NCBI GenBank assembly: GCA_964397485.1
Contig: CAYNHT010000003.1
Span: 10,529-74,528, forward strand
DNA length: 64,000 bases
DNA from: an uncultured Muribaculaceae bacterium
GTDB lineage: Bacteria; Bacillota_I; Bacilli_A; RF39; UBA660
Direction: 5' to 3'
Shown: positions 1,562 through 25,779 of the stretch, in pieces
How the letters are laid out: every line of letters begins with the position of its first letter
Position numbering within the stretch: position 1 is the first letter of the stretch
The notes under the pieces: generated by a model
Databases searched by the model: none
Told to the model about the DNA's origin: nothing
Seen by the model: the letters and a program-made list of their open reading frames with translations, nothing else
Position numbers and translations under genes: made by a program

Positions 1562-1644
1562 GACAGTTTTTTACATAGTTGTTTGATTATAAAACTAATG
1601 TGTGGTATTATTTTCTTAAGATATATACGAAAGGTAGTGTAGTG

Positions 1645-6201: not shown

Positions 6202-6230
6202 AAATAACTTATTAAAAGTTATTTTTTTAT
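6202..6230. terminator. Bidirectional terminator between convergent genes (AAATAACTT-attaa-AAGTTATTT flanked by A- and T-tracts)
   Basis: Perfect 9-bp inverted repeat with flanking A/T runs, between the 3' ends of 5546..6199(+) and 6227..6529(-). Confidence 0.6.
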
Positions 6231-6529
6231 TGTATTTTTGATAGTTCTATTATTAGATCCATATTATCATCATTTGCCATAATATTTTTGTGATTTTTTT
6301 TGCACTTCTCACAGCGATATATAATTTTATAACTATTTTTAAATTTTTCTATTCCAATTGGTTTTAATATACCTAAACATTTATTCATTCTGTCGCCAGG
6401 ATTTATATCAACGTGTTTTGAACAAAGACAATATGGGCAATGATCACGAGCAGTATAGTTTAATTTCGAAACATTCTTGTGACAATTTTCACAAATAAAT
6501 TCTTCATCAATCATAGTAAATTTTTTCAT
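6227..6529 (-). CDS. RNHCP-domain zinc-ribbon protein
   Basis: CENC...ARDHCPYC...CEKC. Four Cys pairs, with an 'RDHCP' motif matching the RNHCP family signature. Confidence 0.5.
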   Translation of the reverse strand: MKKFTMIDEEFICENCHKNVSKLNYTARDHCPYCLCSKHVDINPGDRMNKCLGILKPIGIEKFKNSYKIIYRCEKCKKNHKNIMANDDNMDLIIELSKIQ

Positions 6530-7366: not shown

Positions 7367-7931
7367 AGTGAATTTAACAGCAGTATTAGAAGGGCTTTTA
7401 TTTTTACGGGGAAATGAAGGGATACTATTATCTGAGATAAAAAGCATATTAGAAATAGAAGACGATAATGATCTTAAAAATCTAATAATGAATTTACAAG
7501 AAGAATATCTTAAAGAAACAAGAGGCATAAAAATCGAAAAATTTGGGGAATATTTAAAACTGGTAACTAAAAAGGAACACAAGGAGTATTATGAAAAATT
7601 AGTTGAGATCGATGAGAACACAGGACTTAGTCAATCAGCTTTAGAAACATTGGCAATTATTGCATATAATGGTCCAGTGACCAGAGTAAAAGTAGATGAA
7701 ATAAGAGGTGTGGGAAGTAGTCATATGATAAGAAAATTACTTTCAAGAAACCTAATCAAAGAAGAAGGAAGATCAGACTTACCTGGTCGACCTATTTTAT
7801 ATGGTGTAACACCTGATTTTCTTGATTATTTTGGATTAAGCAGCATTGAAGACTTGCCGAAATTAGAAGCCATACAAATAGGTGAATTAGATGAATTAGA
7901 TTTGTTCGAATCAAAATATAAAGAAGAATAA
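7359..7931 (+). CDS. scpB: Segregation and condensation protein B
   Basis: 'LEGLLF' N-terminus and tandem winged-helix organisation. Overlaps the scpA stop, the canonical scpAB operon arrangement. Confidence 0.85.
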   Translation: MSKVNLTAVLEGLLFLRGNEGILLSEIKSILEIEDDNDLKNLIMNLQEEYLKETRGIKIEKFGEYLKLVTKKEHKEYYEKLVEIDENTGLSQSALETLAIIAYNGPVTRVKVDEIRGVGSSHMIRKLLSRNLIKEEGRSDLPGRPILYGVTPDFLDYFGLSSIEDLPKLEAIQIGELDELDLFESKYKEE

Positions 7932-7964
7932 GTTTATATAAATAATTATTAATATCAGAAAAAA

Positions 7965-7995
7965 ATATAACAATAGCATATTGTTATATTTTTAT
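7965..7995 (+). terminator. Terminator after scpB (ATATAACAAT-agcat-ATTGTTATAT + T-rich)
   Basis: 10-bp perfect inverted repeat followed by TTTTTAT. Confidence 0.5.
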
Positions 7996-8009
7996 ATTTA
8001 TGTTATAAT
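7981..8009 (+). promoter_or_regulatory. Sigma-A-type promoter for tRNA-Leu (TTGTTA-17 bp-TATAAT)
   Basis: -35 at 7981-7986 and -10 at 8004-8009. The tRNA 5' end lies 8 nt downstream. Confidence 0.5.
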
Positions 8010-8017
8010 TTTTCTAT

Positions 8018-8103
8018 GCAGGAGTGGCGGAATGGTAGACGCGAAGGTCTCAAACACCTTTGGTAGAGATACTGTGTGGGTTCAAGTCCCATCTCCTGTA
8101 CCA
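8018..8103 (+). tRNA. tRNA-Leu (anticodon CAA), long variable arm, encoded CCA
   Basis: Cloverleaf: acceptor GCAGGAG/CTCCTGT, anticodon stem AAGGT/ACCTT with loop CTCAAAC, long extra arm, T-arm GGGTTCAAGTCCC, discriminator A, then CCA. Confidence 0.85.
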
Positions 8104-8148
8104 ATAATTATTAATATAATACAATAATAAAATGTATGAGAGTTATAT

Positions 8149-8171
8149 AACTGAAAAGATCAGTTTTTTTT
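8149..8171 (+). terminator. Terminator after tRNA-Leu (AACTGA-aaaga-TCAGTT + T8)
   Basis: 6-bp stem followed by a T-tract. With the promoter above, this makes the tRNA a stand-alone transcription unit. Confidence 0.55.
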
Positions 8172-8219
8172 AACCTTTTGCCACATTACTTTGTATAGAT
8201 TTAATGGAGGAATAATTTT

Positions 8220-9098
8220 ATGACCAAAAAAGAAAATGTAAAATTGAAAAGTGTTGTCGTTATGACTATTTTAGTATTATTAGCGAGTATGTTTGCTATC
8301 ATGTCAAAAGCTTTTTTACCGAGTGATGTAAATATTGATGACTTCAATAGTGTCTTTGTTACAATTTTAGGATTCCCCATTGTTGCCTCACTTTATTTTA
8401 TTATGGTGTATTCGCATAGTGCGATTGTTACAAAAATTTTTGGAGAGAGAACAAATCTATCAAAAATACAAATAGGTCTTCGCTTTGGCGTTTGTTTTGC
8501 GTTGATTTTCCTATTTGGAATGCAAGAAGTTGTAGTTGAAGCATCACCTTTTTCTAGTTGGGGGATTGATTTTGTTGTATATCAGTTTTTTATGGGATTA
8601 GGGGAAGCGCTTGTTGCATTAATCATGTGTTTAGCAATATCTAAATGGACATTAAAAGATAAGAAACTTGTTGACCATCCTGGTGACTATAGTATAAAAA
8701 ATAAGACTTTATTATTGATATTTATTGTTGTTGCCTTTACCCTAGGAAGGGCTATGGTCTATGAAATTGGTTTAATAGCAAGTAATGTAGATAATTTTCC
8801 AATCGCAACTTATGGGTGGACAATTTTATTTGGATTAATAATAGCTTTTTGCTTTATTTTACTTTATCCTATTTTTGGGGAAGAGAAAAATAGTTTTAAG
8901 TTATCGTCTAAAATAGTTTTAATGACAATAGGGCTTAGTTGGATAATTTTTAATATGTTTATAGGTTTGATTTTTAAAGGAGCAATGGTAGATGTGCTAT
9001 TAAGAAGTGGCTTAGATGTGTTTTGGGTCTTTGTAGCATCTTACTTTTGGCACAAATATTTTAATGGGAGTAATCATCCTACTAGCGATTTACAATGA
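8220..9098 (+). CDS. Polytopic membrane protein (~8 TM), unknown function; first gene of the island
   Basis: Hydrophobicity pattern only. Has its own terminator at 9136-9168. Confidence 0.4.
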   Translation: MTKKENVKLKSVVVMTILVLLASMFAIMSKAFLPSDVNIDDFNSVFVTILGFPIVASLYFIMVYSHSAIVTKIFGERTNLSKIQIGLRFGVCFALIFLFGMQEVVVEASPFSSWGIDFVVYQFFMGLGEALVALIMCLAISKWTLKDKKLVDHPGDYSIKNKTLLLIFIVVAFTLGRAMVYEIGLIASNVDNFPIATYGWTILFGLIIAFCFILLYPIFGEEKNSFKLSSKIVLMTIGLSWIIFNMFIGLIFKGAMVDVLLRSGLDVFWVFVASYFWHKYFNGSNHPTSDLQ

Positions 9099-9135
9099 AT
9101 TTTGTTTTAATTTTAAATTGTTAATATATGTAAAA

Positions 9136-9168
9136 AAGATAAAAAACATTGATTTTATCTTTTTTTTT
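9136..9168 (+). terminator. Terminator (AAGATAAAA-8 nt-TTTTATCTT + T7)
   Basis: 9-bp perfect stem followed by a T-run. Confidence 0.55.
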
Positions 9169-9216
9169 AGTTCATTATAAGATATACTATTAGTAAGGAA
9201 TAAAGGGTGTGATAAT

Positions 9217-10833
9217 GTGATATTAAGAAAGCCATATGCATTTTTCATTAAACAGTTTAAATTAATCCATTTAATTTTAACAGCTTTAATAGCTTATTTG
9301 ATTTATCGTACTGGTTTATCATTAGCATTCTTTAATGAATACATATCTACAAATCAAACAGTAATTGATCAAGATTTGACAGGCAATTTATTTAATATTT
9401 ATATGTTTGTGATTCCGTTTTTAATTATTTTAGCATCCGTAACTATCTTATCAGTTATGCAATTGAAAAAGAAACCAATACTATTTTATGTAACTTTAAT
9501 TATCATTTATATTGCAATGCTGTTTGTCTATAATCATGTTTATTCTACTTTATTATTAATGGAAGGTAGACTCATTGATATTAGAACGGTTAGAATGGCT
9601 CGCGACTTTTTAATGATGGGCTTTGTTGCTCAAGCACTAAGTGTCATTATCACATTTGTTAGAGCAACTGGATTTGATATTCAAAAGTTTAATTTCGGAC
9701 AGGATTTAGCTGCTTTAGAAATTAGTGAAGAAGATAGAGAAGAGTTTGAAGTCGAGGTAAATCTAGATACGGACAAAGTTCAAAGGAAAGTTCGACGTAA
9801 TGTTAGGTTTGCAAGATACATATATGTAGAAAATAGATTTTTAATAAACTTAGTTTCATTAGTTTTAATAGCAACTATATGTTTTGTTGTCTACTTAAAT
9901 CTTAATATTTATAACAAGGTATATTCTGAAAAAGATGCTTTTTTAACATCTGATTTTAGTATGTGGATAAATAAAAGTTACATCACAAGGGAAGACTATG
10001 AGGGTAATGTTATTACTGGTACTGACCATTCTTTTGTTGTTCTAGAGATAAGTTTAAAGAATAATTTCGCAAATAAACAAAAATTAGATATCGCTAGAAC
10101 TCAACTTGTTATAGGGGATAAGATATTTTATCATGATTATAACCATCGTGAGAGACTTTTTGACCTTGGGCGTGTATATGATGACACTTTATTGCCTAAC
10201 AATTTTACCAAGTGGTTGTTGGTATATAAAGTTCCAAATAATATGCTAGTAAATCAAAAAATTTCGTTTAGGTACGTTGATAAAGTTGACTATGTAGGAG
10301 GAAAGTTAAGTCCAAAATACATTAATGTTACGGTATCACCTAAAAATTTAGATCAAAAGACTAAATCATATAGTTATAATATAAAAGATGAAGTAAGTTT
10401 TAGTGATAGTATCCTAGGAGACGTTAAATTGGTTGTAAATAAAATTGATATTGCTAATCAATTTAAATTAGATTATCAATTTTGTGTAAATAAAGATGAA
10501 TGTTATCAATCATATGAGTACTTGAAACCAAGTATTATAAATCAACACAATAAAACTCTTCTATATTTGAATGGATTTATTGAATGGGATGAAAAAATAG
10601 CTGTTGATCCAATTCCGAGTGTGTATAAATTTATAGATTTGTTTGGCACGTTTGTGTATGAAATAAATGGTGAAACTAAGATTCAAAACATTATTTTAAA
10701 AGAGGTAAGATCGTTAAAAATAAAAAGAGCTAATGACTATTACATAGAGTTGTTGGAAGAAGTTCAAAAAGCTGATAAAATTTCAATTATTTTTAAAGTA
10801 AGAGACGTTGAATATAAATATACACTAAAATAG
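9217..10833 (+). CDS. Membrane protein: 4 N-terminal TMs, one further TM (~res 205-228), then a ~300-aa extracytoplasmic domain; unknown function
   Basis: Topology read from the sequence. No recognisable catalytic motifs. Confidence 0.4.
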   Translation: MILRKPYAFFIKQFKLIHLILTALIAYLIYRTGLSLAFFNEYISTNQTVIDQDLTGNLFNIYMFVIPFLIILASVTILSVMQLKKKPILFYVTLIIIYIAMLFVYNHVYSTLLLMEGRLIDIRTVRMARDFLMMGFVAQALSVIITFVRATGFDIQKFNFGQDLAALEISEEDREEFEVEVNLDTDKVQRKVRRNVRFARYIYVENRFLINLVSLVLIATICFVVYLNLNIYNKVYSEKDAFLTSDFSMWINKSYITREDYEGNVITGTDHSFVVLEISLKNNFANKQKLDIARTQLVIGDKIFYHDYNHRERLFDLGRVYDDTLLPNNFTKWLLVYKVPNNMLVNQKISFRYVDKVDYVGGKLSPKYINVTVSPKNLDQKTKSYSYNIKDEVSFSDSILGDVKLVVNKIDIANQFKLDYQFCVNKDECYQSYEYLKPSIINQHNKTLLYLNGFIEWDEKIAVDPIPSVYKFIDLFGTFVYEINGETKIQNIILKEVRSLKIKRANDYYIELLEEVQKADKISIIFKVRDVEYKYTLK

Positions 10834-10888
10834 TGTAAAATAGTGTTTATAATATAGATTTTGTGGGAAATTATGGTATAATAATTAA

Positions 10889-11572
10889 ATGGAGGATGGT
10901 ATGATGAAACACTTTTATTTGTTTATACTATTTATGTTTTTTATCATATTAGTCCCAAACAAAGTAGATGCTTTATGTGATTATAATGAAAAAGCTCGAT
11001 TGAAGGCAATTGCTGCTAATATCACATTTAAAACAGATCATATTGAATCTGATGGACAAGTAGAGTTTTTTATAACACTTAGCAATCTACACCCTGAATT
11101 ATATGTGAAGGATGTTATGGGTTATAAATTTCACTATTATAATGCTTCTGCAAAGAATCCAAAAGAGTTAACAATTGGTGGTTACTCTCATGGTAGGACA
11201 ATACAGTATGAGTTTTATACTAAAAACGCTGGTTGTACGAATGAAGTCTTACTAATAAGGTACGTAACTTTACCTCCATATAATAGATTTTATAATGATC
11301 CTCTTTGCAAAGGTCTTGAAAGTTATACCTTATGTCAAAAGTGGGTTGTAAATAATCTTAGTTATGGCAACTTTAAAAAGCAGATTGAAGATTATAAAAA
11401 TAGACCTATTGTTGATCCCGATGATGAAGATCCAGGAGAAAAAATAGATCACTTTGATATGATTGCTAATTTTTTAGGTAAATATTATGTTTATATCTTA
11501 ATGACAATTATTATAGTGTGCTTAATATCAATATATAGAATAAATAAGAAAGATAGTTTCGACTTTTCATAG
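10889..11572 (+). CDS. Secreted protein with signal peptide and C-terminal TM anchor; unknown function
   Basis: N-terminal signal (FYLFILFMFFIILVPNKVDA) and C-terminal TM (YYVYILMTIIIVCLISIY). The stop lies 8 bp before the next gene. Confidence 0.4.
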   Translation: MEDGMMKHFYLFILFMFFIILVPNKVDALCDYNEKARLKAIAANITFKTDHIESDGQVEFFITLSNLHPELYVKDVMGYKFHYYNASAKNPKELTIGGYSHGRTIQYEFYTKNAGCTNEVLLIRYVTLPPYNRFYNDPLCKGLESYTLCQKWVVNNLSYGNFKKQIEDYKNRPIVDPDDEDPGEKIDHFDMIANFLGKYYVYILMTIIIVCLISIYRINKKDSFDFS

Positions 11573-11579
11573 GAGGTGT

Positions 11580-14500
11580 ATGTTTGTGAAAATTAAATTA
11601 CATAAATTAATTATGCTTGTAATAGGTATTTGTGTTATTGGTAGTGTAGGTAGTGTTTCTGCAGAAACTAACATCGGTGGTGGTGGTAATGCGGTTACTA
11701 ATCCTTGTAGCACATCTAGACCAGCAACTTGTTATAACGCTAAACTTGGGACTGGGTCGGGTGATAGTCTAGTACAAGGTGTACGTGTATCTGTTGTAGA
11801 TAAATATGGAAATAGAATACCAGGTACTACGAGTATAGATTATGTTCAAAACAGTGGGCATGCTAATCAAATAAGTACAAGCCCATATTTGAAATTTTTT
11901 CAAAGTGGTAAATATACCAAAAATGAGATATTAGCTGGAAAAGCGAGTGGTGCATCAGCAAGCGGGAGATACGCCGTAACTCATCTTGGTGAATTGCCAA
12001 CATTTATGAATATAGGACCTAATACGGTTATAGAAGATTATTTAAAAGCAAAAAAAGTTAATAGAGATTATACAAAATTAAAACAATTATTCATGGATCC
12101 CATAGGATATGATCCAAAAAAATTTCCGGCTAATGATGTGAAAACTCATTCTTTGCTTTTTGAACCATTAACTTTTATGAGAGTTACAAAATATCCAGTT
12201 TCTGGTTCCCCAACAATAACGAATTATTTTGGAACAGTAACGGAAGTTTCAAAAATGATGGTAGAAGATGGCACAATTTTATGGACGGGTTATTTTGGAA
12301 AGATGTTACCTTTAGCGATTTATGTTAGAGATTATAAAGACCCAATAACTGGCGCAACACAAACTAATCGTGCTGGGCTACAGTCAATTTCAGCTTGGGT
12401 AGCGGCAAATAAGAGTGATTATTCAACCGAAATTTTAACATCAAATGGTACGGCAGCAGGACACTTTTGGGTAAGTGAGTTGATTGAAGAGGAAAAGGAT
12501 CCTTGCGAAGTCAATCCTAATAAATTACCGGAGTGTTGTGCTTTACCACAAAATAAAAATAAATTACCAGAATGCTGTGGTTTAGAAGAAAACAAGAATA
12601 AACCGGAGTGTAATCCCGATCTATGCACATTCACATTGGACTTATCTTGTCCAGGAGATTGTGATGAAAGTACAACTGGTTATATTAAAGATATTGAAGA
12701 CTGGCAGTGTATTTTTGGAAGTAGAACAGCTACTGACGCTAATATAAGAGATCACTTCTACAAATGGGGAAATCGATATTGTTCAATGTTCTGTCGGGAG
12801 AGTTTAACTTATGAATTCCCTAATGGAAATATGACTGTATCTGCAGGAAGTCACTTCACAATTGGAGATACTTGGTATTACCCAAACTGGGGACCTGTTC
12901 ATTTTACTGGACGAAGTGAGTGTAGAACAACAAGTGATACAGGAAGTATTAGATGGGATTTATTCGAAAAAGATTGGGCTCCAGCTAATGATACTGTTAA
13001 AAGTAGATGGGATACTTATCAAATTGCTATAAAACAAGATGCAGCAGTTTCATCTTCGAGCTCCAGTGGTAAATTAGATTGTAATTGGACTTGTGATAGA
13101 TATCACCCTACATATCCTTGTGGTACTGCAGAAAAACCTAGCACTTGTGGTGGTGGTTGTGCGGCTGGAAGCTATAAAAGTACTACGATGTATCCAGCTT
13201 CAGCTTCATATGATGGTAAAAATATTACTCCAGGATCATGGTGTAGTAATAGTAGACCTAACTTCGATGTGCCTGGCAAACGTTCAAGTTATCTGAGTGC
13301 CGTAAATGCAAGAGATACTTTAGAAAGTAATCTACGTCAATGTAATGATTGGGAAAGAGGTTATGAAGAGTTCGAACCAGTCATTGGTTCTCAGTATGAA
13401 GAAGCAGTTTATGGCGGACATTATTATAATTTATCGAAAGTACTAGAAAGAAGAACTCAAACTCATTATTTCATCAATGGAAATAGTACGCCTTCGATTG
13501 ATACCTATAAAAGAACACGTTCGGATTATAGATATGTTTGTAATACAACTGGTGTTCCTTGTGTTAAAGGTCCGTCAGTAGGAGGAAGTTTGATGGTTTA
13601 CCCTACAAATGACTGGATAAGACAATTTACTACTAAAGAGTATGATTATACTTTACCAGCAAGTGTTTATAGATATGTTTTAAAACCATCTGGTGAATCT
13701 GTTAATCAAAAACCAGGTGCAGGAGAAAACTATGTTGATCTTGGTTATAGTAATTTACCAATTCATTATTCAAGAGCAACTGGTTCATATGATATATTTT
13801 TACAATATACTTCACTTGGACCTAATCACAACTTCAATAAATTTATTTTTGAAGGTGCTGAGTTAAATGTAAATTATGGAGAAAGTCTATCAATATATAC
13901 ATGGTTATTTGAAAATAACTTAACATGGATGATTGCCGATTGTGGTGAGGGTGGCCACCATTTAAGTCATTATTTTGGAGCCCCGCTTATTGCTGCAGGG
14001 CGTCTGAATGAATTTTTAGATTCGGGTTGTGCGAAACAATATGGTTGTAAATTGTTAGAAACTAGGTCACCATATCGTGTTTCATGTCCTGGCGATATTG
14101 TTGATAGTAGACATGGCGGGTCTTCGAGTAATTACAAACGTTTAATGCAGTGTATTGCAGAAAAGCGAATTGTTACTGCAAGTAGCGAAGAGTGTGATAC
14201 AAAATACGATTGTAAGTACAACGTTAGAAATTCATTAATGGATAACCCTAACGATCCAACACTTAATCCGCAAGGAATTGATGTTGTTTATCGTACGATC
14301 TCACTAACAAATCCATTCCCAGGTAAAAATGGTAATGGTAGAACTCCAGGCTCTAACTGGAATAGTAGTAGTTTAATTAAACAATATATTACTAATAATA
14401 GAAATTTATCAAATCCAGAAAGAATATATTTTGACCGTGAACCTATGTATGAAATTAATTTAACTCCGGTTGTAATAAAAGAAATAAGAACTCACAACCG

Positions 14501-14684
14501 TAAACAAGCTGCATATAACCGTGGTGGTTATGCTGATTTTGAGTTAAATTGTGGTACTGGAACTGGTCGTGAATGTAAGAGTTATTTTATAAGAGATGTA
14601 TTTAGTAAATATTTTATTTCTAATAGATGTGGAATGAGTAGCAACTGGAACGCTTGCCTTAATTCCGATAAGAGTAAGGGGTGA
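11580..14684 (+). CDS. Giant secreted Cys-rich protein (1034 aa, about three dozen Cys), candidate pilus tip adhesin/effector
   Basis: Signal peptide ...VGSVSA|ETN. Cys-rich repeats (NKLPECCALPQNKNKLPECCGLEENKNKPEC). No LPXTG motif and no C-terminal TM. It is the first gene of the Tad-like operon. Confidence 0.5.
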   Translation: MFVKIKLHKLIMLVIGICVIGSVGSVSAETNIGGGGNAVTNPCSTSRPATCYNAKLGTGSGDSLVQGVRVSVVDKYGNRIPGTTSIDYVQNSGHANQISTSPYLKFFQSGKYTKNEILAGKASGASASGRYAVTHLGELPTFMNIGPNTVIEDYLKAKKVNRDYTKLKQLFMDPIGYDPKKFPANDVKTHSLLFEPLTFMRVTKYPVSGSPTITNYFGTVTEVSKMMVEDGTILWTGYFGKMLPLAIYVRDYKDPITGATQTNRAGLQSISAWVAANKSDYSTEILTSNGTAAGHFWVSELIEEEKDPCEVNPNKLPECCALPQNKNKLPECCGLEENKNKPECNPDLCTFTLDLSCPGDCDESTTGYIKDIEDWQCIFGSRTATDANIRDHFYKWGNRYCSMFCRESLTYEFPNGNMTVSAGSHFTIGDTWYYPNWGPVHFTGRSECRTTSDTGSIRWDLFEKDWAPANDTVKSRWDTYQIAIKQDAAVSSSSSSGKLDCNWTCDRYHPTYPCGTAEKPSTCGGGCAAGSYKSTTMYPASASYDGKNITPGSWCSNSRPNFDVPGKRSSYLSAVNARDTLESNLRQCNDWERGYEEFEPVIGSQYEEAVYGGHYYNLSKVLERRTQTHYFINGNSTPSIDTYKRTRSDYRYVCNTTGVPCVKGPSVGGSLMVYPTNDWIRQFTTKEYDYTLPASVYRYVLKPSGESVNQKPGAGENYVDLGYSNLPIHYSRATGSYDIFLQYTSLGPNHNFNKFIFEGAELNVNYGESLSIYTWLFENNLTWMIADCGEGGHHLSHYFGAPLIAAGRLNEFLDSGCAKQYGCKLLETRSPYRVSCPGDIVDSRHGGSSSNYKRLMQCIAEKRIVTASSEECDTKYDCKYNVRNSLMDNPNDPTLNPQGIDVVYRTISLTNPFPGKNGNGRTPGSNWNSSSLIKQYITNNRNLSNPERIYFDREPMYEINLTPVVIKEIRTHNRKQAAYNRGGYADFELNCGTGTGRECKSYFIRDVFSKYFISNRCGMSSNWNACLNSDKSKG

Positions 14685-14689
14685 TGTAA

Positions 14690-15091
14690 GTGAAAGAATC
14701 ATTTTGGGCAGTTTTGGTTATATTAATGGGTATAATATCAATAGTATTTGTATACTTATTTCAAAATTTAACCAATACTGATGAACATAACTACCACTTA
14801 TTAAAAGAGGCTACTGAAGCAGCAATGTATGATGCTTTAGATTTAGCTGCTTATCGTAAAGATAAGACAATTAGAATTGATCGTGAAAAGTTTGTGGAAA
14901 ACTTTGTAAGAAGATTTGCGGAAAGTGCAAACCTTGCGCAAACTTACAATATAAAAATTTACGATGTTAATGAGACTCCCCCAAAAGTGAGCCTACAAGT
15001 TTCTAGTAGACAATCAGGAACTAGTGGCAGTGAAATTATTGAATTTGATATTGTTAATCGTATAGATGCAATATTGGAAACCCCATATTAG
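14690..15091 (+). CDS. Small pilin/pseudopilin-like protein (MKES leader, N-terminal hydrophobic helix)
   Basis: MKESFWAVLVILMGIISIVFVYLF followed by a ~110-aa soluble domain. Shares the M(K/R)E start with the three pilin-like genes at 18.9-20.0 kb. Confidence 0.35.
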   Translation: MKESFWAVLVILMGIISIVFVYLFQNLTNTDEHNYHLLKEATEAAMYDALDLAAYRKDKTIRIDREKFVENFVRRFAESANLAQTYNIKIYDVNETPPKVSLQVSSRQSGTSGSEIIEFDIVNRIDAILETPY

Positions 15092-15107
15092 AAAGGAATG
15101 AGAAGGA

Positions 15108-15947
15108 ATGAATAATATTATTATTTCAATCAAAAGATTTTTTAAAAACAAGAATACTGTTACAGTTGTTGGGATAATTGCAATAATTGGTATATTATAT
15201 TGGGGATATAATTACCAAATTAATAGACAAGTAAATCCAGTTAGAAATATTCCAATAGCAAAAACGACAATCCAACCTAGAACATTAATTACGGAGGAAA
15301 TGATTGACTATGTTGATATTGCTCCAATTGTGCTAAGACAAAATACTGTCACTTCTTCTAGATTAGTTGTTGGGAAATATACTGACTACAATACAGTTAT
15401 CCCAGAAGGAAGTTTATTTTATAAGAATGTTTTAGTAGATAAAGATGAACTACCAGATGCAGCTTTTGTTAAGGTAAAAGAAGGAGATGTTGTATATAAC
15501 TTCCCGGTTAATATGGATACTACTTATGGTAACTCTATTTTCCCAGGAAATAAAATTGACATCTATATGAAAGCAGAAAATGCAGGAAGACAAATTATGG
15601 TTGGGAAATTAATTGAGAATGTTGAGGTTATCGCTGTTAAAGATAGTAGTGGATTACATGTATTTGAAAATACGGAAGAAAGAAGAATTCCATCTACATT
15701 GATCTTTGGTGTAACTCCAGAAATTAATATCTTATTAAGAAAAGCAAGTTATATGAAATCATTTGCTGTTGAATTATTCCCAGTTCCTCATGGTGGGACA
15801 ATTGTAAACCAAGGTGAAATACAAGTTACTTCACAAAGTTTAAAAGATTTCATTAATGCTAATACTGTTCCTAATGATGATATTGTAGCTCCAATTGATG
15901 AAGACCCTATTATCGATGAAGAAAATAATGACGATATCGTAGGTTAG
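15108..15947 (+). CDS. CpaB/RcpC-like Flp pilus assembly protein (N-terminal TM + SAF-like domain)
   Basis: Single N-terminal TM, then a 'V..A..I..G..I..E.I..V.I.P......LVVGKY....I.EG' pattern typical of the CpaB SAF domain. Sits directly upstream of the CpaF-like ATPase. Confidence 0.45.
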   Translation: MNNIIISIKRFFKNKNTVTVVGIIAIIGILYWGYNYQINRQVNPVRNIPIAKTTIQPRTLITEEMIDYVDIAPIVLRQNTVTSSRLVVGKYTDYNTVIPEGSLFYKNVLVDKDELPDAAFVKVKEGDVVYNFPVNMDTTYGNSIFPGNKIDIYMKAENAGRQIMVGKLIENVEVIAVKDSSGLHVFENTEERRIPSTLIFGVTPEINILLRKASYMKSFAVELFPVPHGGTIVNQGEIQVTSQSLKDFINANTVPNDDIVAPIDEDPIIDEENNDDIVG

Positions 15948-15958
15948 GAGGAAAAATT

Positions 15959-17125
15959 ATGCATGATAATATATTTGCCCAGATAGACTTCGGTGCTTTA
16001 AACGAGTATATTCAAAATGATGACGTAACCGATGTTTCATATAGTAATGGTGGGCAAGTATGGTTAAAAACCTTATCAAAAGGTATATATAGAGTAGATA
16101 ATCCTGCAATCAATAATGCTTTTATGGAAAAACTAGCCTTTCAGTGTGCTAACGTTATGGGAAAGACATTTAATATGGCTCATCCTTTCTTAGATGCTGA
16201 AAGCGCTGAACTCCGTTTGAACTTTGTGCATGATTCAGTAGCACGTAATGGTGTTGCGGTAGTTATCCGTAAGACACCAGCTAAAATACGTCTTGAAAAA
16301 GAAAAAATTATTGAAGATAAGTATATTACTTTAAGTATTCATGATTTTTTAGTTAAGTGCATTGAGGGTCACTGTAATGTTATTGTTTGCGGTGAGACTG
16401 GTTCTGGTAAAACAGAATTTGTAAAATATTTAGCCTCTAAAACTAAAGAAAATGAAAAAATTATCACAATAGAAGATACTCTGGAACTTCACCTTGATAG
16501 AATTTTCCCGCATCGTGATATAGTTGCAATGAAAACTAATAATATCGCATCATATTCAGATGTGTTAGTCACATGTATGCGTCAAAATCCTAAATGGATA
16601 TTACTATCTGAGGTACGTAGTGCGGAGGCTGTTATGGCTGTTCGAAACTCAATATCATCAGGACATTACATTTTATCTACAATCCATGCTGATAAAGCAG
16701 CATCAATACCTAACCGTATGTACAGTCTATTAGAAACAAATCAAGATATTGAACAGTTCTTGAAATCTATTTACAGATACATACAACTAGGTATTTATGT
16801 TAGAGGATATCAAGATAAAGTTAGTAAACGTTTCATTCGTGAAATAGCAGAAGTGACAGAATTTTATGTAACACCTGATAATGAGGCTAAGTACAATACA
16901 ATCTATAGAAAGATGGCTGATGGAAGAGTTATCCAAAAGCGTCCTAGTGATTATTTATTCGATTATTTAGAAATACAAGGTGTTATGTTAGATAAGAATA
17001 TTATTCAACCAAGTGAAGATAAAGAAGATACTGAAATTACAGGTGAAGATATAAATACTGTGGTTGAACCAACGAATACTAATAGTGGTATTTTCGAAGA
17101 AAAAGTTGAAGTATTGTTTGAATAA
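15959..17125 (+). CDS. CpaF/TadA (VirB11-superfamily) secretion ATPase
   Basis: Walker A (GETGSGKTE), Asp box (TIEDTLEL), 'RQNPKWILLSEVRSAEA' (RxxPDxIxxGExR) and a His box (STIHA). Confidence 0.8.
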   Translation: MHDNIFAQIDFGALNEYIQNDDVTDVSYSNGGQVWLKTLSKGIYRVDNPAINNAFMEKLAFQCANVMGKTFNMAHPFLDAESAELRLNFVHDSVARNGVAVVIRKTPAKIRLEKEKIIEDKYITLSIHDFLVKCIEGHCNVIVCGETGSGKTEFVKYLASKTKENEKIITIEDTLELHLDRIFPHRDIVAMKTNNIASYSDVLVTCMRQNPKWILLSEVRSAEAVMAVRNSISSGHYILSTIHADKAASIPNRMYSLLETNQDIEQFLKSIYRYIQLGIYVRGYQDKVSKRFIREIAEVTEFYVTPDNEAKYNTIYRKMADGRVIQKRPSDYLFDYLEIQGVMLDKNIIQPSEDKEDTEITGEDINTVVEPTNTNSGIFEEKVEVLFE

Positions 17126-17137: not shown

Positions 17138-18043
17138 ATGAGTAGTGGTGTTATTTTTATAGTTATTTCTTTTATAGTTGTTTTTATTATAGCTTATAGA
17201 AAAAATACTGGTGAGAATGTCTATAAATATATAGTTAGGCAAGTTGGAACTGCCTATGATAAATATGCCCCTTTTTCATTTAAAGTAGTTAGAGAAAAGG
17301 TAAAAGATTTAGGTCAGGAGTATACTCCTAGACAATATGCGATTCAAATTACAATTTTTGCGTTAGGATCATTAATTATATCCTATATGTATTTCTATAG
17401 TTTGGTTATATCGCTAATGTATATGACTATATCTATAACAATAATTCCTTATTTAACATACTTAAGATGTAAGAGACTATATAGTGAGTTTATTTTTGAA
17501 CAAATTCAAGTATACACAACTAACGTAATTATGGAATTTGCAACAACTCAATCATTTGTTAAATCATTAGAGGGTGTTTACGAATCTGGGGTTTTAGAAG
17601 ACCCAGTAAAAAAAGATGTAAAAGCCATGATTGATTTGGCATATGAAAACGGTACTATATATGCATCTTTAGATCATATGGATAAAAATTACAATTTTTA
17701 TATAGTAAAGAACATGCATCAATTATTTTTACAAATAACTAATGAAGGTTCTAAAGATGCTGGTGCATCTTTAGAAAATATGTCTCTTGATATAGATATG
17801 TTAGTTGAAAGTGTGTATAGAGATAGATTAGACCGTTCATCATTCCATAAAAAGTTTTTACAATTTGGTATCGTTTTATACTTAATGGTAATGTTAGTAC
17901 AGTTTTTATTAGGTGTAGAAACCTATATAAAAATGCTTGATAACGTTCTTGTTCAGTTGTTACTGCACTTAATTGTCCTTGTTAATACATTATTTTTGTT
18001 AAATGGGGAAAAATATTACAATGAGAATGTGGGGGCGGAATAA
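17138..18043 (+). CDS. TadB-like platform membrane protein (T2SS-F-like topology)
   Basis: N-terminal TM, a cytoplasmic domain and C-terminal TM pair. Lies immediately downstream of the secretion ATPase, with a 4-bp overlap to the next gene. Confidence 0.45.
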   Translation: MSSGVIFIVISFIVVFIIAYRKNTGENVYKYIVRQVGTAYDKYAPFSFKVVREKVKDLGQEYTPRQYAIQITIFALGSLIISYMYFYSLVISLMYMTISITIIPYLTYLRCKRLYSEFIFEQIQVYTTNVIMEFATTQSFVKSLEGVYESGVLEDPVKKDVKAMIDLAYENGTIYASLDHMDKNYNFYIVKNMHQLFLQITNEGSKDAGASLENMSLDIDMLVESVYRDRLDRSSFHKKFLQFGIVLYLMVMLVQFLLGVETYIKMLDNVLVQLLLHLIVLVNTLFLLNGEKYYNENVGAE

Positions 18044-18825
18044 TGGAATTTATATTTATTGCGATAATAATACTATATATATTAGAAATTAATCGACAAG
18101 TAGATACAAAAAAATTCATTGATGATACCGAACCATATTTTCGCTTTTTAATGGAAGATGACTATAAGTTTTTATTGATGCTAAGATATGGGTCTGATGT
18201 TGATGTAAATAAATTATATACAATTAGAGTAAGAAATGGGTTAGTTGCAATTATATTTATGATTTTTGTCTTTATGACTAACCTAAATTTCATTAATGTA
18301 ATATTTGCTTTTATTGTTGGATTTATTATGTTTAAATTACCATATAATAAATTGCGCAATTTTTACAAAGCAAATCTTCATCAAATTAATTTAATGTTGC
18401 CTTATTATTTGAAGAGTTTAGAAATTTTAATTCAACATTATACAGTTCCAGTAGCGCTTGGGCGTTCAATTGAAACTGCACCAGACATATTCAAACCAGG
18501 TTTAAGAAAATTAATTGCTAAAATAGAATCTGGGGATCCAACGGTTGATCCATATATGGATTTTGCGAAAGAATACCCAGTTAGGGATTCAATGCGTATG
18601 ATGAGATTGTTATATCGACTTGGTCTTGGATCGCAAGAAAATAAGCAAGATCAATTGATGATGTTTTCTAGAACTGTGTCGGCACTTCAAAGTAAATCTA
18701 GGGAACAAAAATATCGTGATCGTCTCGATAAAATGGAAAATCAAACTATGTTAATGTTGGGGGTAACTGGTGGCGGAATAATGTTACTGATGTTACTGTC
18801 AATGATGATGATGATGCAATTTTAA
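18043..18825 (+). CDS. TadC-like platform membrane protein
   Basis: Same topology class as the previous gene. Second of the characteristic TadB/TadC pair. Confidence 0.45.
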   Translation: MEFIFIAIIILYILEINRQVDTKKFIDDTEPYFRFLMEDDYKFLLMLRYGSDVDVNKLYTIRVRNGLVAIIFMIFVFMTNLNFINVIFAFIVGFIMFKLPYNKLRNFYKANLHQINLMLPYYLKSLEILIQHYTVPVALGRSIETAPDIFKPGLRKLIAKIESGDPTVDPYMDFAKEYPVRDSMRMMRLLYRLGLGSQENKQDQLMMFSRTVSALQSKSREQKYRDRLDKMENQTMLMLGVTGGGIMLLMLLSMMMMMQF

Positions 18826-18892: not shown

Positions 18893-19084
18893 ATGAAAGA
18901 AGCGGCAGGGGAAGCAAACTTAACAGTAGTAGCTATTATTCTAATCGGGGTAATCGCGGCTGTTGTAACACCTATTGTCACAAACATGATGAATACTACT
19001 CAAAAAAGATCATGCTGTTTAAATAACGGTGGAACTTGGGTAAATGGTAAATGTCAAGGAGCTAGTGATGTTTGTCCTAGTTAA
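18893..19084 (+). CDS. Flp-like small pilin (63 aa) with a 4-Cys C-terminal knot
   Basis: MKEAAG|EANLTVVAIILIGVIAAVVTPIV: short leader ending in Gly, then a hydrophobic helix. C-terminus RSCCLNNGGTWVNGKCQGASDVCPS. Size and position match a Flp pilin. Confidence 0.5.
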   Translation: MKEAAGEANLTVVAIILIGVIAAVVTPIVTNMMNTTQKRSCCLNNGGTWVNGKCQGASDVCPS

Positions 19085-19104: not shown

Positions 19105-19524
19105 ATGAGGGAAGGTATAGGAAGTGTCTTTTTATACAATATAATTATTACTTTTATAATAATAGTATTCGCTTTTTTGGCTGGAACTCTTAGTTATACT
19201 AAAGCCTTTAAAGTAAATACTAAAATAGTTAGTGCTATTGAAAAGTATGAGGGATATAATAATTTATCTAACAACGAGATAAATAAAGCGTTGCAAACTT
19301 TAGGTTATAGAATTAGTACAAATAATACTTGCCCCAAAAGGGATGGCAAGAGTGCCATGACTAATTTATCTAATAACTATAAGTATTGCGTATATGAATT
19401 TTCTGAAGGAAAAGGATATCGTACTTATGGAGTTGTAAGTTATATTTCTATTGATATTCCGATTATAGGTGGTTTATTACAAATACCTATATATTCAAGA
19501 ACAATAAAAATGTATAATTTTTAG
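19105..19524 (+). CDS. TadE/TadF-like pseudopilin, paralog 1
   Basis: MREGIG leader, hydrophobic helix, a conserved Cys pair (TCPKRDG...YKYCVY) and a C-terminal 'D(I/V)PIIG..(I/F)PIY' block shared with paralog 2. Confidence 0.45.
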   Translation: MREGIGSVFLYNIIITFIIIVFAFLAGTLSYTKAFKVNTKIVSAIEKYEGYNNLSNNEINKALQTLGYRISTNNTCPKRDGKSAMTNLSNNYKYCVYEFSEGKGYRTYGVVSYISIDIPIIGGLLQIPIYSRTIKMYNF

Positions 19525-19537
19525 AAGGTGAAGATAT

Positions 19538-19969
19538 ATGAGAGAATCAGTTGGTAATACGTTTATATTTAATACAATTATTATATTTGTTTCGATATTA
19601 ATTGCTTTATTAGTTGGTTCTCTTAGCTATTCAAAAGCTTTTAAAGTAAAAAACCGAATTGTATCAATAATTGAAAAGCATGAAGAATATAATTCAAGTG
19701 CTAGAAATGAAATTGAGGCTGCATTAGCAAGTATTGGTTATCGTGTCAATCCTAATGGCACACAATCGTGCCCTAATAGGGAAGGTGCGTCAGCTATTAA
19801 TACAACTAATAGTAACTACCGTTATTGTGTGTATCTGTATGATACAGGTACCTACGGTAAAGGGAGATATTATGGAGTTGCTGCTTATATGCACTTTGAT
19901 GTTCCGATTATTGGACAATTTATTGAGTTTCCCATTTATGGAGAAACCAGAATCATTTACGTTATATAG
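19538..19969 (+). CDS. TadE/TadF-like pseudopilin, paralog 2
   Basis: MRESVG leader. Colinear with 19105..19524, including the Cys pair (SCPNREG...YRYCVY). Confidence 0.45.
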   Translation: MRESVGNTFIFNTIIIFVSILIALLVGSLSYSKAFKVKNRIVSIIEKHEEYNSSARNEIEAALASIGYRVNPNGTQSCPNREGASAINTTNSNYRYCVYLYDTGTYGKGRYYGVAAYMHFDVPIIGQFIEFPIYGETRIIYVI

Positions 19970-19986: not shown

Positions 19987-20985
19987 ATGAATGTAATAGT
20001 TTCTAATAAATATCAGTCAATGCTTCAAAGTTTAAATATTGACATAATTAAAAATCAATCAGGTGAATTTGAAGTAGAGGAATTGATTTCAACTTTCCAA
20101 AACTTTTATTATCAAAGAATGATTTTAGATATTACAGCAATCAAAAATTATAAAGATGTTAAGACTTTGCAAAAATTGTCTATTTCTTTGGACATGGATA
20201 AAATAATTTTATTATTAGATGATTCTGCAGAAAGTACATCATCAGACTATTTATCAAAACTAATTTCAATGGGAATTTATAATTTTACTAGAAATATAGA
20301 GGGTATAATGTATTTATATCATAATCCAAATAGTTATCGTGATGTTGCTCACATTCATCAATTAGATAATTTTAACGATGAAGATAAAACTCAATTTGTT
20401 ATTAATGTTACTAACAACGGTGTTCGTATCGTTGGGGTGAAAAATGTTACTAAACAATCTGGGGCTACATCTTTAATCTACATGATGAAAAAGCAATTAG
20501 AACGAAATTATTCTGTGGTTGCACTTGAAGTTGATAAAAGGGATTTTATGTACTTTAAGGATAAAGAAATGCTTAGTGTTGTAAATGCCGAAGTAGGTAA
20601 TACAATTGCTAAACACAGTGATTGTGATATTATTTTAATTGATATAAATAATAGTGTGTCAGCAGAAGGTTTGTGTCATGACATTATCTATTTAATTGAA
20701 CCATCAGTTATAAAGCTTAACAAACTTATGATGCTTGATGGTAAAATATTGGAAAGACTAAAAAATAAGAAAGTTATTTTAAATCAAAGTATGCTAAGCT
20801 CTAAAGATGTGTTAGACTTTGAATATGAATCAAGAATTAAAGTTTTCTACAATATGCCACCTTTGGATGAGAGGGAAAAGGAAATTCATATTTTAAATGT
20901 GTTTTTAACAAGATTAGGGTTCGATCGTCAAAAGAGTGAAGAAACTGAGAAAAAAAATAAACTTTTAGGTTTATTCAACATATAA
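19987..20985 (+). CDS. TadZ/CpaE-like protein (receiver-like N-domain + degenerate ParA/MinD-like domain)
   Basis: Position in the locus, and 'GVKNVTKQSGATSLIYMM' where MinD/ParA proteins carry GKGGVGKTT. The Walker A is degenerate, as in many TadZ proteins. Confidence 0.3.
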   Translation: MNVIVSNKYQSMLQSLNIDIIKNQSGEFEVEELISTFQNFYYQRMILDITAIKNYKDVKTLQKLSISLDMDKIILLLDDSAESTSSDYLSKLISMGIYNFTRNIEGIMYLYHNPNSYRDVAHIHQLDNFNDEDKTQFVINVTNNGVRIVGVKNVTKQSGATSLIYMMKKQLERNYSVVALEVDKRDFMYFKDKEMLSVVNAEVGNTIAKHSDCDIILIDINNSVSAEGLCHDIIYLIEPSVIKLNKLMMLDGKILERLKNKKVILNQSMLSSKDVLDFEYESRIKVFYNMPPLDEREKEIHILNVFLTRLGFDRQKSEETEKKNKLLGLFNI

Positions 20986-21042: not shown

Positions 21043-21372
21043 ATGTTTATATTAGCGACAACAGTTCAATGTGGTGGATACAATGTACCCGTTCCAATTA
21101 TTAACATAGTTCATACAATTGTTGAACTTATTAAAATTGGTGTTCCTATTTTATTAGTTATCTTTGGTATGCTTGATTTAGGAAAAGCTGTTATGGCTCA
21201 AAAAGAGGATGAAATCAAAAAAGGACAACAAACTTTTATTAAGAGATTAATCGCAGCTGCAATTGTTTTCTTTGTAATCGTAATTGTGCAGTTAGTATTC
21301 AATTTAGCTAGCGGCGGAGATGAAGCAAACATCTGGAGTTGTGTAGAAAAATTCGTTGTAACTGGTGCTTAA
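21043..21372 (+). CDS. VirB2/TrbC-like conjugative pilin candidate (two hydrophobic helices separated by a charged loop)
   Basis: IGVPILLVIFGMLDLGKAV...FIKRLIAAAIVFFVIVIVQLVF. The same ~60-aa module forms the C-terminus of 21456..23054. Followed by a hairpin and T-run. Confidence 0.4.
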   Translation: MFILATTVQCGGYNVPVPIINIVHTIVELIKIGVPILLVIFGMLDLGKAVMAQKEDEIKKGQQTFIKRLIAAAIVFFVIVIVQLVFNLASGGDEANIWSCVEKFVVTGA

Positions 21373-21380
21373 AAAGAGAA

Positions 21381-21416
21381 AAAACAATTAATATCTATTT
21401 ATTATTGTTTTTTTTT
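21381..21416 (+). terminator. Terminator/attenuator after the small pilin-like gene (AAAACAAT-15 nt-ATTGTTTT + T6)
   Basis: 8-bp stem, a large loop and a T-run. Followed by an extended -10 (TGTTATAAT). Confidence 0.4.
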
Positions 21417-21455
21417 ATGTTATAATGTAGGTGGTTAATTATCGACATAGGAGTT

Positions 21456-23054: not shown

Positions 23055-23069
23055 AGAGGTGGAGATTTT

Positions 23070-24914: not shown

Positions 24915-24935
24915 ATAAAAAGGGTGTGATATTAG

Positions 24936-25256
24936 GTGAATAATCAATTTTTGATACCTGCGAATTCTAAAAGGTCAATTTTATATTTTGGTCTATTTAA
25001 CAAATTTGATTTAGCACTATTTTCTTCAGGATTAGTGGTGACGTTAATACTATTATTAATAGTCCCACTAAACAACTTAGCAATTACAATTATGGCAATA
25101 TTGCCAGGCTTTATTAGTGGATTTTTGGTCATGCCAGTACCAAACTATCATAATGTACTGACGATACTAAAAAGTGCAATTGGATTTTATACTAGCAGGC
25201 AAAAATATGTGTGGAAGGGTTGGTGTTTCCTAAGTGGCAAAGAAAACGAAAAGTAA
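24936..25256 (+). CDS. VirB3-like small membrane protein (PrgI/Orf17-like)
   Basis: ~100 aa with two TMs, immediately preceding and overlapping the VirB4 gene, the canonical arrangement. Confidence 0.5.
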   Translation: MNNQFLIPANSKRSILYFGLFNKFDLALFSSGLVVTLILLLIVPLNNLAITIMAILPGFISGFLVMPVPNYHNVLTILKSAIGFYTSRQKYVWKGWCFLSGKENEK

Positions 25257-25779
25257 GTATACTAATGATGATATCCCGGTTAAAAGTATTACAAATGGGA
25301 TGATTATATTAGATAATAATTTTAAAGTTACGGGTGTTAAAATAATGCCTCGTAACATATTTATTCTAGATCAAGATATGCAAAACAGTATAATCGCAAA
25401 TTTAAAAAACGTTTATAACATAATTGATTATGAATTTTGGATAATGGCGGCTGATAGACCAGTTGATATTAATGTCTATTTGTCTCAGCTACAATTGCTG
25501 TATAACTCAGTAACTAGTCAAGCAAAGAGAAAATTAATCATGGAGGATATTAACAAAGCAAATATGTTTATGAACAACAATGTTGTTGATACAGAATATT
25601 ATCTTTTATTCAAGGAAAAAGATAATGAGTTAATTCAAAAACGAATTAGGGTATTGATTAATTCGTTCGCTAGTGCAGGTCTTTCTTCACATCAAGTTAC
25701 TAATGATGATTTAAGAATGATTTTAGATAACTTCTTAAATGGTGGACAAACAACTGATTTTGGGACGGTGATTGGATAA
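25234..25779 (+). CDS. VirB4-family ATPase, N-terminal domain (separate ORF)
   Basis: Colinear with VirB4/TcpF/PrgJ N-domains. Ends in TAA overlapping the next ATG (ATAATGG); the continuation is in another frame. Confidence 0.55.
   Translation: MAKKTKSKYTNDDIPVKSITNGMIILDNNFKVTGVKIMPRNIFILDQDMQNSIIANLKNVYNIIDYEFWIMAADRPVDINVYLSQLQLLYNSVTSQAKRKLIMEDINKANMFMNNNVVDTEYYLLFKEKDNELIQKRIRVLINSFASAGLSSHQVTNDDLRMILDNFLNGGQTTDFGTVIG

Follow-up and report, generated by a model that had tools for sequence, protein, structure and literature searches.

What is a large, anchorless and cysteine-rich secreted protein doing in an operon that encodes both a filament and a conjugation-type secretion system? The question is raised by a gene at 11580–14684 (+ strand) of a 64,000-nucleotide (nt) stretch of DNA, referred to here as the window, from an uncultured bacterium that is recorded as a Muribaculaceae and placed by GTDB in Bacilli_A (RF39; UBA660; contig CAYNHT010000003.1, positions 10,529 to 74,528). 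The gene belongs to a protein family that we call FAM, and lies in an operon block of ~25 kb (9217–33702; all of the block's genes described below are on the + strand) in which a Tad-like filament module precedes a type IV secretion system (T4SS). Our leading interpretation, offered tentatively, is that FAM is a non-pilin, interchangeable adhesin of the filament, resembling PilC/PilY1 in role and not homologous to it. We favor an exposed, filament-attached specificity element because FAM is exported by Sec without an anchor, combines a conserved C-terminus with a hypervariable N-terminus, occupies a slot next to pilin genes, has paralogs, and has a disulfide-rich build.

The open reading frame (ORF) translates into 1034 aa and is preceded by an AGGAGG ribosome-binding site, with gaps of only 7 nt to the preceding gene and 5 nt to the following one. 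No terminator was found on the + strand at 7900–15200, although terminator and promoter scans carry little information in DNA this AT-rich. The sole hydrophobic segment in a hydropathy scan is residues 1–30, and it contains a predicted Sec signal peptide (residues 1–28, 11580–11663) with an h-region at residues 9–24 and a VSA/ET signal-peptidase site. A28, G33 and G34 are conserved in the alignment, the relatives all open with MKK, a hydrophobic stretch and an A, and a signal peptide is present at the start of all full-length members among 157 retrieved family sequences. The mature N-terminus (residues 29–40, 11664–11700) has a conserved Gly-rich segment, x-x-N-I-G-G-G-G, and similar G-rich stretches are found family-wide. 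Regular-expression and hydropathy scans found no LPXTG motif with a hydrophobic tail and no second transmembrane (TM) segment, and there are no LysM, choline-binding or SLH wall-binding repeats (the Pfam scan is empty even at E 10). A pilin-like N-terminus is also absent, as are Pfam matches to TadE/Tad or vWA. The translation and these scans bear out the first-pass annotation in describing an anchorless 1034-aa protein with a signal peptide. It had also placed the gene directly upstream of pseudopilin, CpaB and ATPase genes, which is correct, as DUF5411, a weak RcpC/CpaB match and a T2SSE-family ATPase come next. Its view that the gene heads the operon has to be corrected; FAM is the third gene, behind those at 9217–10833 and 10889–11572, and both of these are conserved ahead of it at all syntenic loci.

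The 36 cysteines (Cys) make up 3.48% of the protein, against an average of 0.78% for the other 57 genes in the window (binomial P 4e-13), and the Cys clusters picked out in the first-pass annotation (PECCALP, PECCGLE, CNPDLCTFTLDLSCPGDC, and CNWTCD..YPCG..STCGGGC) are each found in the translation. This composition is a family trait: among the 157 retrieved sequences the median length is 1016 aa and Cys account for 2.0–4.8% of residues (median 3.4%). Alignments of 70–127 relatives at ~30% identity contain 9–12 invariant or near-invariant Cys columns. In the 70-sequence alignment (~27–35% identity) the invariant positions are C349, C361, C377, C401, C405, C448, C878, C991 and C999, and the near-invariant ones are C523, C588, C654, C661 and C1017. 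Adjacent variable Cys tend to be gained or lost jointly (phi 0.63 for 654/661 and 0.50 for 43/51). The number of Cys is even in 102 of 147 mature family chains and odd in 45, a departure from parity of ~4.7 standard deviations. An even-count bias is the criterion that Daniels et al. use to infer disulfide formation (PMC2823432), and because the family matches it, a structural, disulfide-forming role for the FAM cysteines is well supported by sequence; together with the conserved columns, this favors the earlier suggestion, made from Cys density, that the fold is disulfide-stabilized. The window protein itself has an odd number of mature Cys, 35, because C18 sits in the signal peptide, and at least one Cys must therefore be unpaired.

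Daniels et al. also report that exported proteins of aerobic Firmicutes exclude Cys (PMC2823432). FAM has company within its own operon, with conserved Cys in the head of a 63-aa pilin (four), in o227 (four to five) and in o532 (ten), so that the whole exposed part of the machine appears to use Cys. The 63-aa pilin (18893–19084) retains the pattern K-x-CC-x3-GG-x-W-x3-5-C ... C in its head of 25–45 residues at all loci. With these four Cys kept, the filament subunit itself looks disulfide-dependent. No DsbA/BdbD-type oxidoreductase is encoded within the 64-kb window, the only thiol-redox-type membrane protein there being a DsbD_2/CcdA-like one. This protein, which carries an HMA domain, and an FtrD-like protein (48301–50154) adjoin a heavy-metal P-type ATPase (46058–48280), and the DsbD_2/CcdA-like protein is probably part of a metal operon and not of an oxidative-folding pathway.

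FAM has no match in Pfam, NCBIfam or PHROGs, and sequence-profile searches of the PDB are empty for both the full-length protein and its C-terminal module; the possibility, raised at the outset, that it is a member of a common cell-wall protein family thus found no support in these four databases. A precomputed match to DUF8193 (PF26613) is attached to a single 907-aa member, that of L057 (L numbers are our labels for related loci), but was not reproduced in a Pfam scan of the same protein, and no PF26613 match is on record for the window protein or other members. An exhaustive profile (hidden Markov model, HMM) search across 1.84 billion representative proteins, with clusters at 50% identity, recovered 1,251 representative clusters at E ≤ 1e-3 and 274 at E ≤ 1e-30. 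The alternative of a tiny family, suggested by 11 and then 9 word-index matches, was rejected as a sensitivity artefact in light of that number. All named members are 'hypothetical proteins' from metagenome-assembled genomes (MAGs) of uncultured Bacilli, Mollicutes or Firmicutes, and we found nothing specific in the literature on DUF5411, DUF8193, or a combined Tad and T4SS locus in Mollicutes-related Firmicutes. A plasmid origin was rejected, as PLSDB has no DNA or protein match, and so was a phage origin, with no relatives on IMG/VR contigs, no PHROG match and no fold match in BFVD.

An AlphaFold2 (AF2) model built from the 70-sequence alignment has a mean predicted local distance difference test score (pLDDT) of 82.9 and a predicted template modeling score (pTM) of 0.57, with 512 residues at ≥90. 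A structure prediction and fold search had been suggested as a check on the protein, and they return no recognizable known fold: the search against the PDB found no solved relative and no beta-propeller match, and the only similarities are to Ig-like/macroglobulin beta-sandwich domains, which are typical of adhesins and pilus proteins. The model begins with an N-terminal alpha/beta domain (residues 46–300, 11715–12479; pLDDT 80–97), the most variable part of the protein, followed by a Cys-rich linker of LP-x-CC repeats (residues 301–350, 12480–12629) predicted at low confidence (pLDDT 54–63). Within the linker there is a tandem motif, NKLPECC(A/G)L..NKNK (residues ~314–347, 12519–12620), and homologs vary in having one to three LP-x-CC units. 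A conserved core (residues 351–750, 12630–13829) consists of beta-rich domains with helices at 459–491 and 564–589 and a beta-sandwich at ~600–745; the Cys assigned to it are C349, C361, C377, C401, C405 and C448, plus the near-invariant C588. An optional helical insert (residues 751–890, 13830–14249), seen as gaps in the alignment, is present in ~20–40% of members (column occupancy 0.22–0.37). The C-terminal module (residues 891–1034, 14250–14681; pLDDT 50–89) is the most conserved part, at 2.3–2.6 bits per column, with the consensus YRxxxLxxPFPGxxGxGRxPGxNW ... NNRGV ... PMYxIxLTP ... IRxYN ... DFxLxC....CxSxF and the invariant residues R905, F913, R921, W927, P955, C991 and C999. It is a candidate docking module.

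The same polarity is evident from rates of change within the operon. Mean pairwise distances over 20 non-identical loci identify the N-terminal domain of FAM as the fastest-evolving element (0.74), followed by o227 (0.63), o538 (0.60), the C-terminal module of FAM (0.54), the minor pilins (~0.5), the pilin (0.45), CpaB (0.41), DUF5411 (0.34), the platform proteins (~0.29) and the ATPase (0.24). Among close orthologs the N-terminal 300 aa share 21–44% identity, and conservation is highest in the C-terminal ~130 aa.

The position of FAM is kept across genomes. All of the related MAG loci share the order scpA, scpB, tRNA-Leu, o538, o227, FAM (one or two copies), DUF5411, CpaB and ATPase. A protein-based locus search, using a DNA motif for PFPG-x4-GR-x2-G-x-NW, yielded 38 metagenome stretches, 35 of them with a family member. 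Of these 35, two are truncated at an end, although what they contain agrees with the slot, and another two are too short to be informative; in 28 of the 31 informative loci FAM lies directly between o227 and DUF5411, and the other three are orphans. The recurrence of this slot in the MAGs and in these 28 loci confirms the expectation of the first-pass annotation that homologs would be found beside pilus and T4SS loci elsewhere. Several MAGs carrying the Firmicute-type operon are recorded as 'Muribaculaceae' or 'Ignavibacteriales' (L008, L014 and L015), probably through errors of binning or taxonomy, because the contigs carry the scpAB, GerA and DUF5411 genes typical of this Bacilli lineage.

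FAM is also multiplied. Tandem paralogs in the arrangement FAM-o227-FAM, with two or three copies of FAM, are present at many loci, and o227-FAM orphan pairs and lone FAM copies are found among housekeeping genes (L013, L037, L050 and L051). In L013, a Bacilli MAG from the Hadza gut, two orphan paralogs (9401–12739 and 13837–17088; 1112 and 1083 aa, with 41 and 43 Cys) flank a GAPDH-like gene, and there are no machine genes in the 22.7 kb around them. The two genes o227 (4–5 Cys) and FAM together behave as a duplicable cassette, including copies far from the machine (L016, L037 and L044).

Loci found through FAM cannot show its absence, and contigs were therefore also sampled through DUF5411, giving six lineages. 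FAM is in its slot in four of them: L056/L060 (1178–1183 aa, 41 Cys), L057 (913 aa, 30 Cys), L059 (1155 aa, 43 Cys) and L063/L064 (983–985 aa, 35 Cys). In L055–L058 and L060 the operon is not beside scpAB and has other flanks, and the order of its internal slot is still kept.

These features are close to those of PilC/PilY1 and MshQ, which are Sec-exported, non-pilin proteins of ~1000–1200 aa encoded beside minor-pilin genes and commonly with paralogs; in PilC/PilY1 the conserved C-terminal part docks a PilK-type minor pilin and the N-terminal adhesive part is variable (PMC13533445). FAM is similar in size, Sec export, pilin-gene neighbor, conserved C-terminus with variable N-terminus, and paralogs, and its place beside DUF5411 mirrors the pilX-pilY1 and mshP-mshQ gene pairs (PMC13533445). 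It differs in lacking any sequence or fold relation, with no PilY1/PilC Pfam match and no beta-propeller, and also in its Gram-positive host, its disulfide-rich build and its absence from some complete loci.

We propose the following mechanism. FAM would be exported by Sec and its signal peptide cleaved, and outside the membrane it would adopt a multi-domain fold that some twelve or more disulfides hold together. The adjacent Tad-like module would build the filament, which FAM would join as an accessory, non-pilin subunit, with the conserved C-terminal module docking it to the machine, and the likeliest partner would be a minor-pilin complex at the filament tip. The product of o227 may be a membrane-anchored partner, or hold FAM before it is loaded. 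The hypervariable N-terminal domain would face outward and bind a partner cell or a surface as its target, and binding could draw cells together for the T4SS, or DNA-transfer, half of the operon. Tandem and orphan paralogs would supply alternative specificities. What the sequences show directly is the secretion signal, the conserved Cys with their even-count bias, the fixed gene slot, the gradient of rates, the paralogy and the lack of a known fold; the disulfides themselves, the docking partner and the filament attachment, as well as an adhesin function and any link to transfer, are steps that we infer.

The filament half of the operon starts beyond a left border of RNHCP-scpA-scpB-tRNA-Leu(CAA), the tRNA gene (8018–8103, + strand) lying between scpB and the operon; most related genomes keep this border. 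A gene for a 292-aa, 7-TM protein without a family match (8220–9098) separates the tRNA from the operon in the window genome alone. The RNHCP-domain protein (6227–6529, – strand), which adjoins scpA and is conserved, is itself 8% Cys. The first operon gene, o538 (9217–10833), is conserved and encodes a protein whose N-terminus has five TM segments and whose C-terminal part is extracytoplasmic, and the second, o227 (10889–11572), lies directly 5' of FAM and encodes a 227-aa protein with a signal peptide, five Cys and a C-terminal TM anchor. Downstream of FAM is the gene for the 133-aa DUF5411 protein (14690–15091; PF17424, E 2e-53; 2,629 clusters), with a leader M-K/R/Q-E-S-x-W-G/A and a hydrophobic helix, which we regard as a candidate minor pilin and candidate docking partner of FAM. 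It is followed by a CpaB/RcpC-like gene (15108–15947), whose match is below the family cutoff, and by a secretion ATPase of the T2SSE/VirB11/TadA superfamily (15959–17125; PF00437, E 6e-27, above cutoff) for which VirB11, TadA-family and TrbB are the best NCBIfam matches, all far below their cutoffs. Two polytopic membrane proteins of 301 and 260 aa (17138–18825) occupy the position of a TadB/TadC platform; they have no family match and are 72–83% identical across genomes.

The remaining genes of this half encode the 63-aa pilin-like protein (18893–19084), which begins MKEAAG/EANLTV... and has the four conserved Cys (CC..C..C), two paralogous minor-pilin-like proteins of ~140 aa, o139 and o143 (19105–19969; leader MRE-x-x-G), and o332, a conserved 332-aa cytoplasmic protein in the TadZ/CpaE position without a family match (19987–20985). 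DUF5411, both ~140-aa proteins and the 63-aa pilin all start with M-(K/R/Q)-E-x-x-(G/W)-(G/A/S) and then ~20 hydrophobic residues, a prepilin-type N-terminus, and the four leaders therefore suggest one major and three minor pilin-like subunits. The fit to a Tad layout is in gene order, sizes, topology and these leaders. T2SSF, Flp and TadE have no match among the filament-half proteins at a threshold as loose as E 10, and the window genes that were scanned do not include a prepilin peptidase (peptidase A24). Upstream of the operon, at 1579–3306, the window encodes a protein of 575 aa carrying the N-terminal methylation motif of type IV pilins, which indicates that this genome has another type IV filament system, distinct from that of the operon. 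In one of the two sampled contigs from each of the two DUF5411-sampled lineages without FAM, a YfhO-family gene, which we take to encode a glycosyltransferase, lies between the pilin and minor-pilin genes on the opposite strand (L055, 14636–17038; L061, 7796–10243; both – strand).

The second half, at 21043–33702, begins with a VirB2-like candidate with two TM segments (21043–21372) and a Cys-bearing surface protein (21456–23054), and continues with a TrbL/VirB6-like protein (23070–24914; matches to TrbL_4 and MMCAP2_0566/Mbov_0396), a VirB3-like protein (24936–25256), a split VirB4, an M23 wall hydrolase (27578–29881; Peptidase_M23), two lipoproteins (29882–31386) and a VirD4 coupling protein (31399–33702; CD1115 family, 298.8 bits against a cutoff of 250). 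The split VirB4 consists of a 181-aa N-terminal ORF (25234–25779) and a 594-aa ATPase ORF (25779–27563) that overlap by 1 nt. The split recurs in L057, L058, L059 and L062, where a 183-aa ORF matches a 'TraC-like' family. With VirB4, VirD4, a VirB6-like protein and a wall hydrolase, the downstream module has, as judged from its sequence, the makeup of a conjugative T4SS. The best NCBIfam match of VirB4 is to the Mbov_0397 family of Mycoplasma integrative and conjugative elements (ICEs) (4e-104), although the scores of both VirB4 and the VirB6-like protein for the Mycoplasma ICE families are below the equivalog cutoffs, and this chromosomal block may be related to the machinery of mycoplasma conjugation. 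A recent ICE at the tRNA-Leu gene was rejected; there is no integrase, transposase, relaxase or att repeat in 8104–34130, and the composition is close to that of the flanks. The operon may be an anciently fixed element. That it is a fixed chromosomal locus we infer from its left border, the absent mobility genes and the composition; the scpAB-tRNA-Leu left border recurs in many diverged genomes. The right border is formed by VTT, RmuC, RNase R, SmpB and tmRNA genes, where SmpB is followed directly on the list of features by the tmRNA, with the tag VTYNKKITGNRNQLAFA (41067–41905 for the two). Further on there is a gene for a secreted LysM-CAP protein (42544–43269, – strand).

Several points weigh against a filament adhesin. 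FAM has an ordinary Sec signal peptide and no pilin-like N-terminus of its own. No conserved terminal beta-strand is evident either; the C-termini of FAM proteins vary and a helix is modeled at residues 1025–1033. The 'Tad' label is weak, with only the ATPase superfamily match being solid and the rest resting on architecture. Mirror-tree comparisons give similar partial correlations (r 0.7–0.8) for o227, CpaB, DUF5411 and o538, and do not single out DUF5411 as a partner. No filament has been observed, and all carriers are uncultured. Most directly, two of the six DUF5411-sampled lineages (L055/L058 and L061/L062) have no FAM in any frame of 13–20 kb; the filament genes and o227 are kept, o227 adjoins DUF5411 directly, and L061/L062 belongs to the most often assembled DUF5411 cluster. 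Absence of the gene from otherwise syntenic loci had been named in the first-pass annotation as grounds for abandoning a link to the pilus, and the outcome is divided: the slot persists in 28 of 31 loci found through FAM, whereas two of the six lineages found through DUF5411 lack it. Because of these two lineages we regard FAM as a frequent accessory and not a core part, and because o227 persists where FAM is absent it must have a role that is independent of FAM. The complete loci without FAM also mean that assembly cannot require it in the manner of PilY1 or CpaL, unless there are orphan copies elsewhere, and FAM is probably not an assembly-licensing factor like PilY1.

Other filament systems offer partial parallels for a filament adhesin. 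TadG/CpaL is a large accessory protein of Tad filaments that has been implicated in tip function and surface interaction and has an N-terminal pilin-like domain (PMC13533445, PMC12607857); FAM would likewise be a large accessory protein of a Tad-type filament, but its Sec signal peptide is of the cleavable kind and it matches neither TadE/Tad nor vWA. The Kil Tad pilus of Myxococcus xanthus has variable, multi-copy minor-pilin tips and is functionally coupled to a type III secretion system (T3SS*) (PMC12075869), and the multi-copy, variable FAM and the pairing of a filament machine with a second secretion apparatus, here a T4SS, are similar. However, the Kil tips are minor pilins in a Gram-negative predator, whereas FAM is a separate non-pilin and its coupling to a T4SS is only genomic, through a shared operon. 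In the conjugative IncI2 plasmid TP114, a type IV pilus encoded with a T4SS displays variable PilV adhesins that set mating specificity (PMC9045228); PilV is a minor pilin, varied by a shufflon and carried on a Gram-negative plasmid, in contrast to the chromosomal FAM locus with its paralog diversity, where no shufflon or mobility genes were found. Membership of FAM in the PilC/PilY1, MshQ, Kil tip and TP114 PilV families is excluded at the level of sequence and predicted fold, because it lacks a propeller and a pilin-like N-terminus and is unrelated to them in both sequence and fold.

The alternative that survives best is that FAM serves the T4SS and not the pilus, as a surface mating adhesin or an envelope-spanning component, held at the membrane through the TM helix of o227, spanning the wall and steadying contact with the recipient. 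Large surface adhesins are typically encoded by Gram-positive conjugation systems, and the analogues would be PrgB-type aggregation substance or the surface lipoproteins of Mycoplasma ICEs, here without a sortase anchor. PrgB-type aggregation substance is a large surface protein encoded with a Gram-positive T4SS that promotes contact between donor and recipient; it is LPXTG-anchored and Cys-poor with known adhesin domains, and FAM differs in having neither LPXTG nor a known domain and in being rich in Cys. The operon does have the full conjugation-related set of VirB4, VirB6, VirD4 and hydrolase genes, and o227 is directly 5' of the FAM copies (with the 7-nt gap in the window) and accompanies orphans too. 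Distances for the C-terminal module of FAM correlate with those of o227 (mirror-tree partial r 0.78) at least as well as with those of DUF5411 (0.71), although, as noted above, the mirror-tree does not discriminate. Against a T4SS role, FAM is in the filament half beside pilin-like genes, 6.4 kb 5' of the first T4SS gene, and o227 survives in lineages without FAM, hence has a role of its own. We consider this alternative realistic, if on the unlikely side.

A second alternative, which we think improbable, is that FAM is a released effector, such as a toxin, a bacteriocin-like protein or an enzyme, that is co-regulated with the machine and not attached to it. Its disulfides would provide stability in gut or sediment, and o227 would be a protective or immunity partner. 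The lack of any anchor, the fast evolution, the multiple copies and the small cognate neighboring gene are all compatible with this, and the novel fold leaves room for a catalytic function, for which the C-terminal module, with its many invariant Arg, Asn, Asp and Tyr, could provide an active site or a binding site. However, the polarity is opposite to that of polymorphic toxins, FAM having a variable N-terminus and a conserved C-terminus, and the small partner gene is upstream, with a product that is exported and membrane-anchored. No toxin, enzyme or defense family was matched, and export by Sec means that release needs neither the T4SS nor the pilus module. The weakest alternative is a passenger, that is, a secreted wall or spore-surface protein sharing the transcription unit with no functional link to the machine, for which there are orphan copies amid housekeeping genes (L013, L050 and L051), machines without FAM in two of six lineages and a host that is evidently spore-forming, because SpoIVA and GerABC are encoded in the window (spore coats being Cys-rich), but this is very improbable given that the slot is kept despite divergence of FAM to ~30% identity and changed chromosomal neighborhoods, and that no sporulation-type context or family match was found. 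The polarity of conservation and the persistent slot make both of these last explanations less likely.

A broader interpretation can also be considered, although we hold it with clear reservation. The Cys-rich family could be the exchangeable target-recognition module of an undescribed, chromosomally fixed hybrid of a Tad-like retractile filament and a Mycoplasma-ICE-like T4SS, used by uncultured Mollicutes-related Bacilli of gut and sediment for contact-dependent exchange of DNA or protein. The machine would then be a free-living relative or precursor of mycoplasma conjugation, and the family a new disulfide-rich adhesin fold. The likeness to Mycoplasma ICEs is that the operon's VirB4 and VirB6-like proteins are closest to Mbov_0397 and Mbov_0396/MMCAP2_0566 and that the carriers are Mollicutes-related Bacilli; the difference is that transposase, integrase and relaxase genes and att repeats were not found in the operon block. 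We know of no filament module or Cys-rich family of this kind in Mycoplasma ICEs.

A conserved chromosomal operon of ~25 kb thus unites a type IV filament module and a conjugation-type T4SS in uncultured Mollicutes-related Bacilli, including members from the human gut. FAM runs counter to the rule, reported for aerobic Firmicutes, that Firmicutes keep Cys out of exported proteins, and implies an undescribed capacity for oxidative folding, or a niche, for a lineage of a phylum that otherwise avoids extracellular Cys. The family, large, unnamed and functionally unannotated, with secreted proteins of ~1000 aa, represents a gap in the map of bacterial surface proteins. If FAM does set specificity, the repertoire of paralogs would decide the contact partners, and possibly the DNA-exchange partners, of these bacteria.

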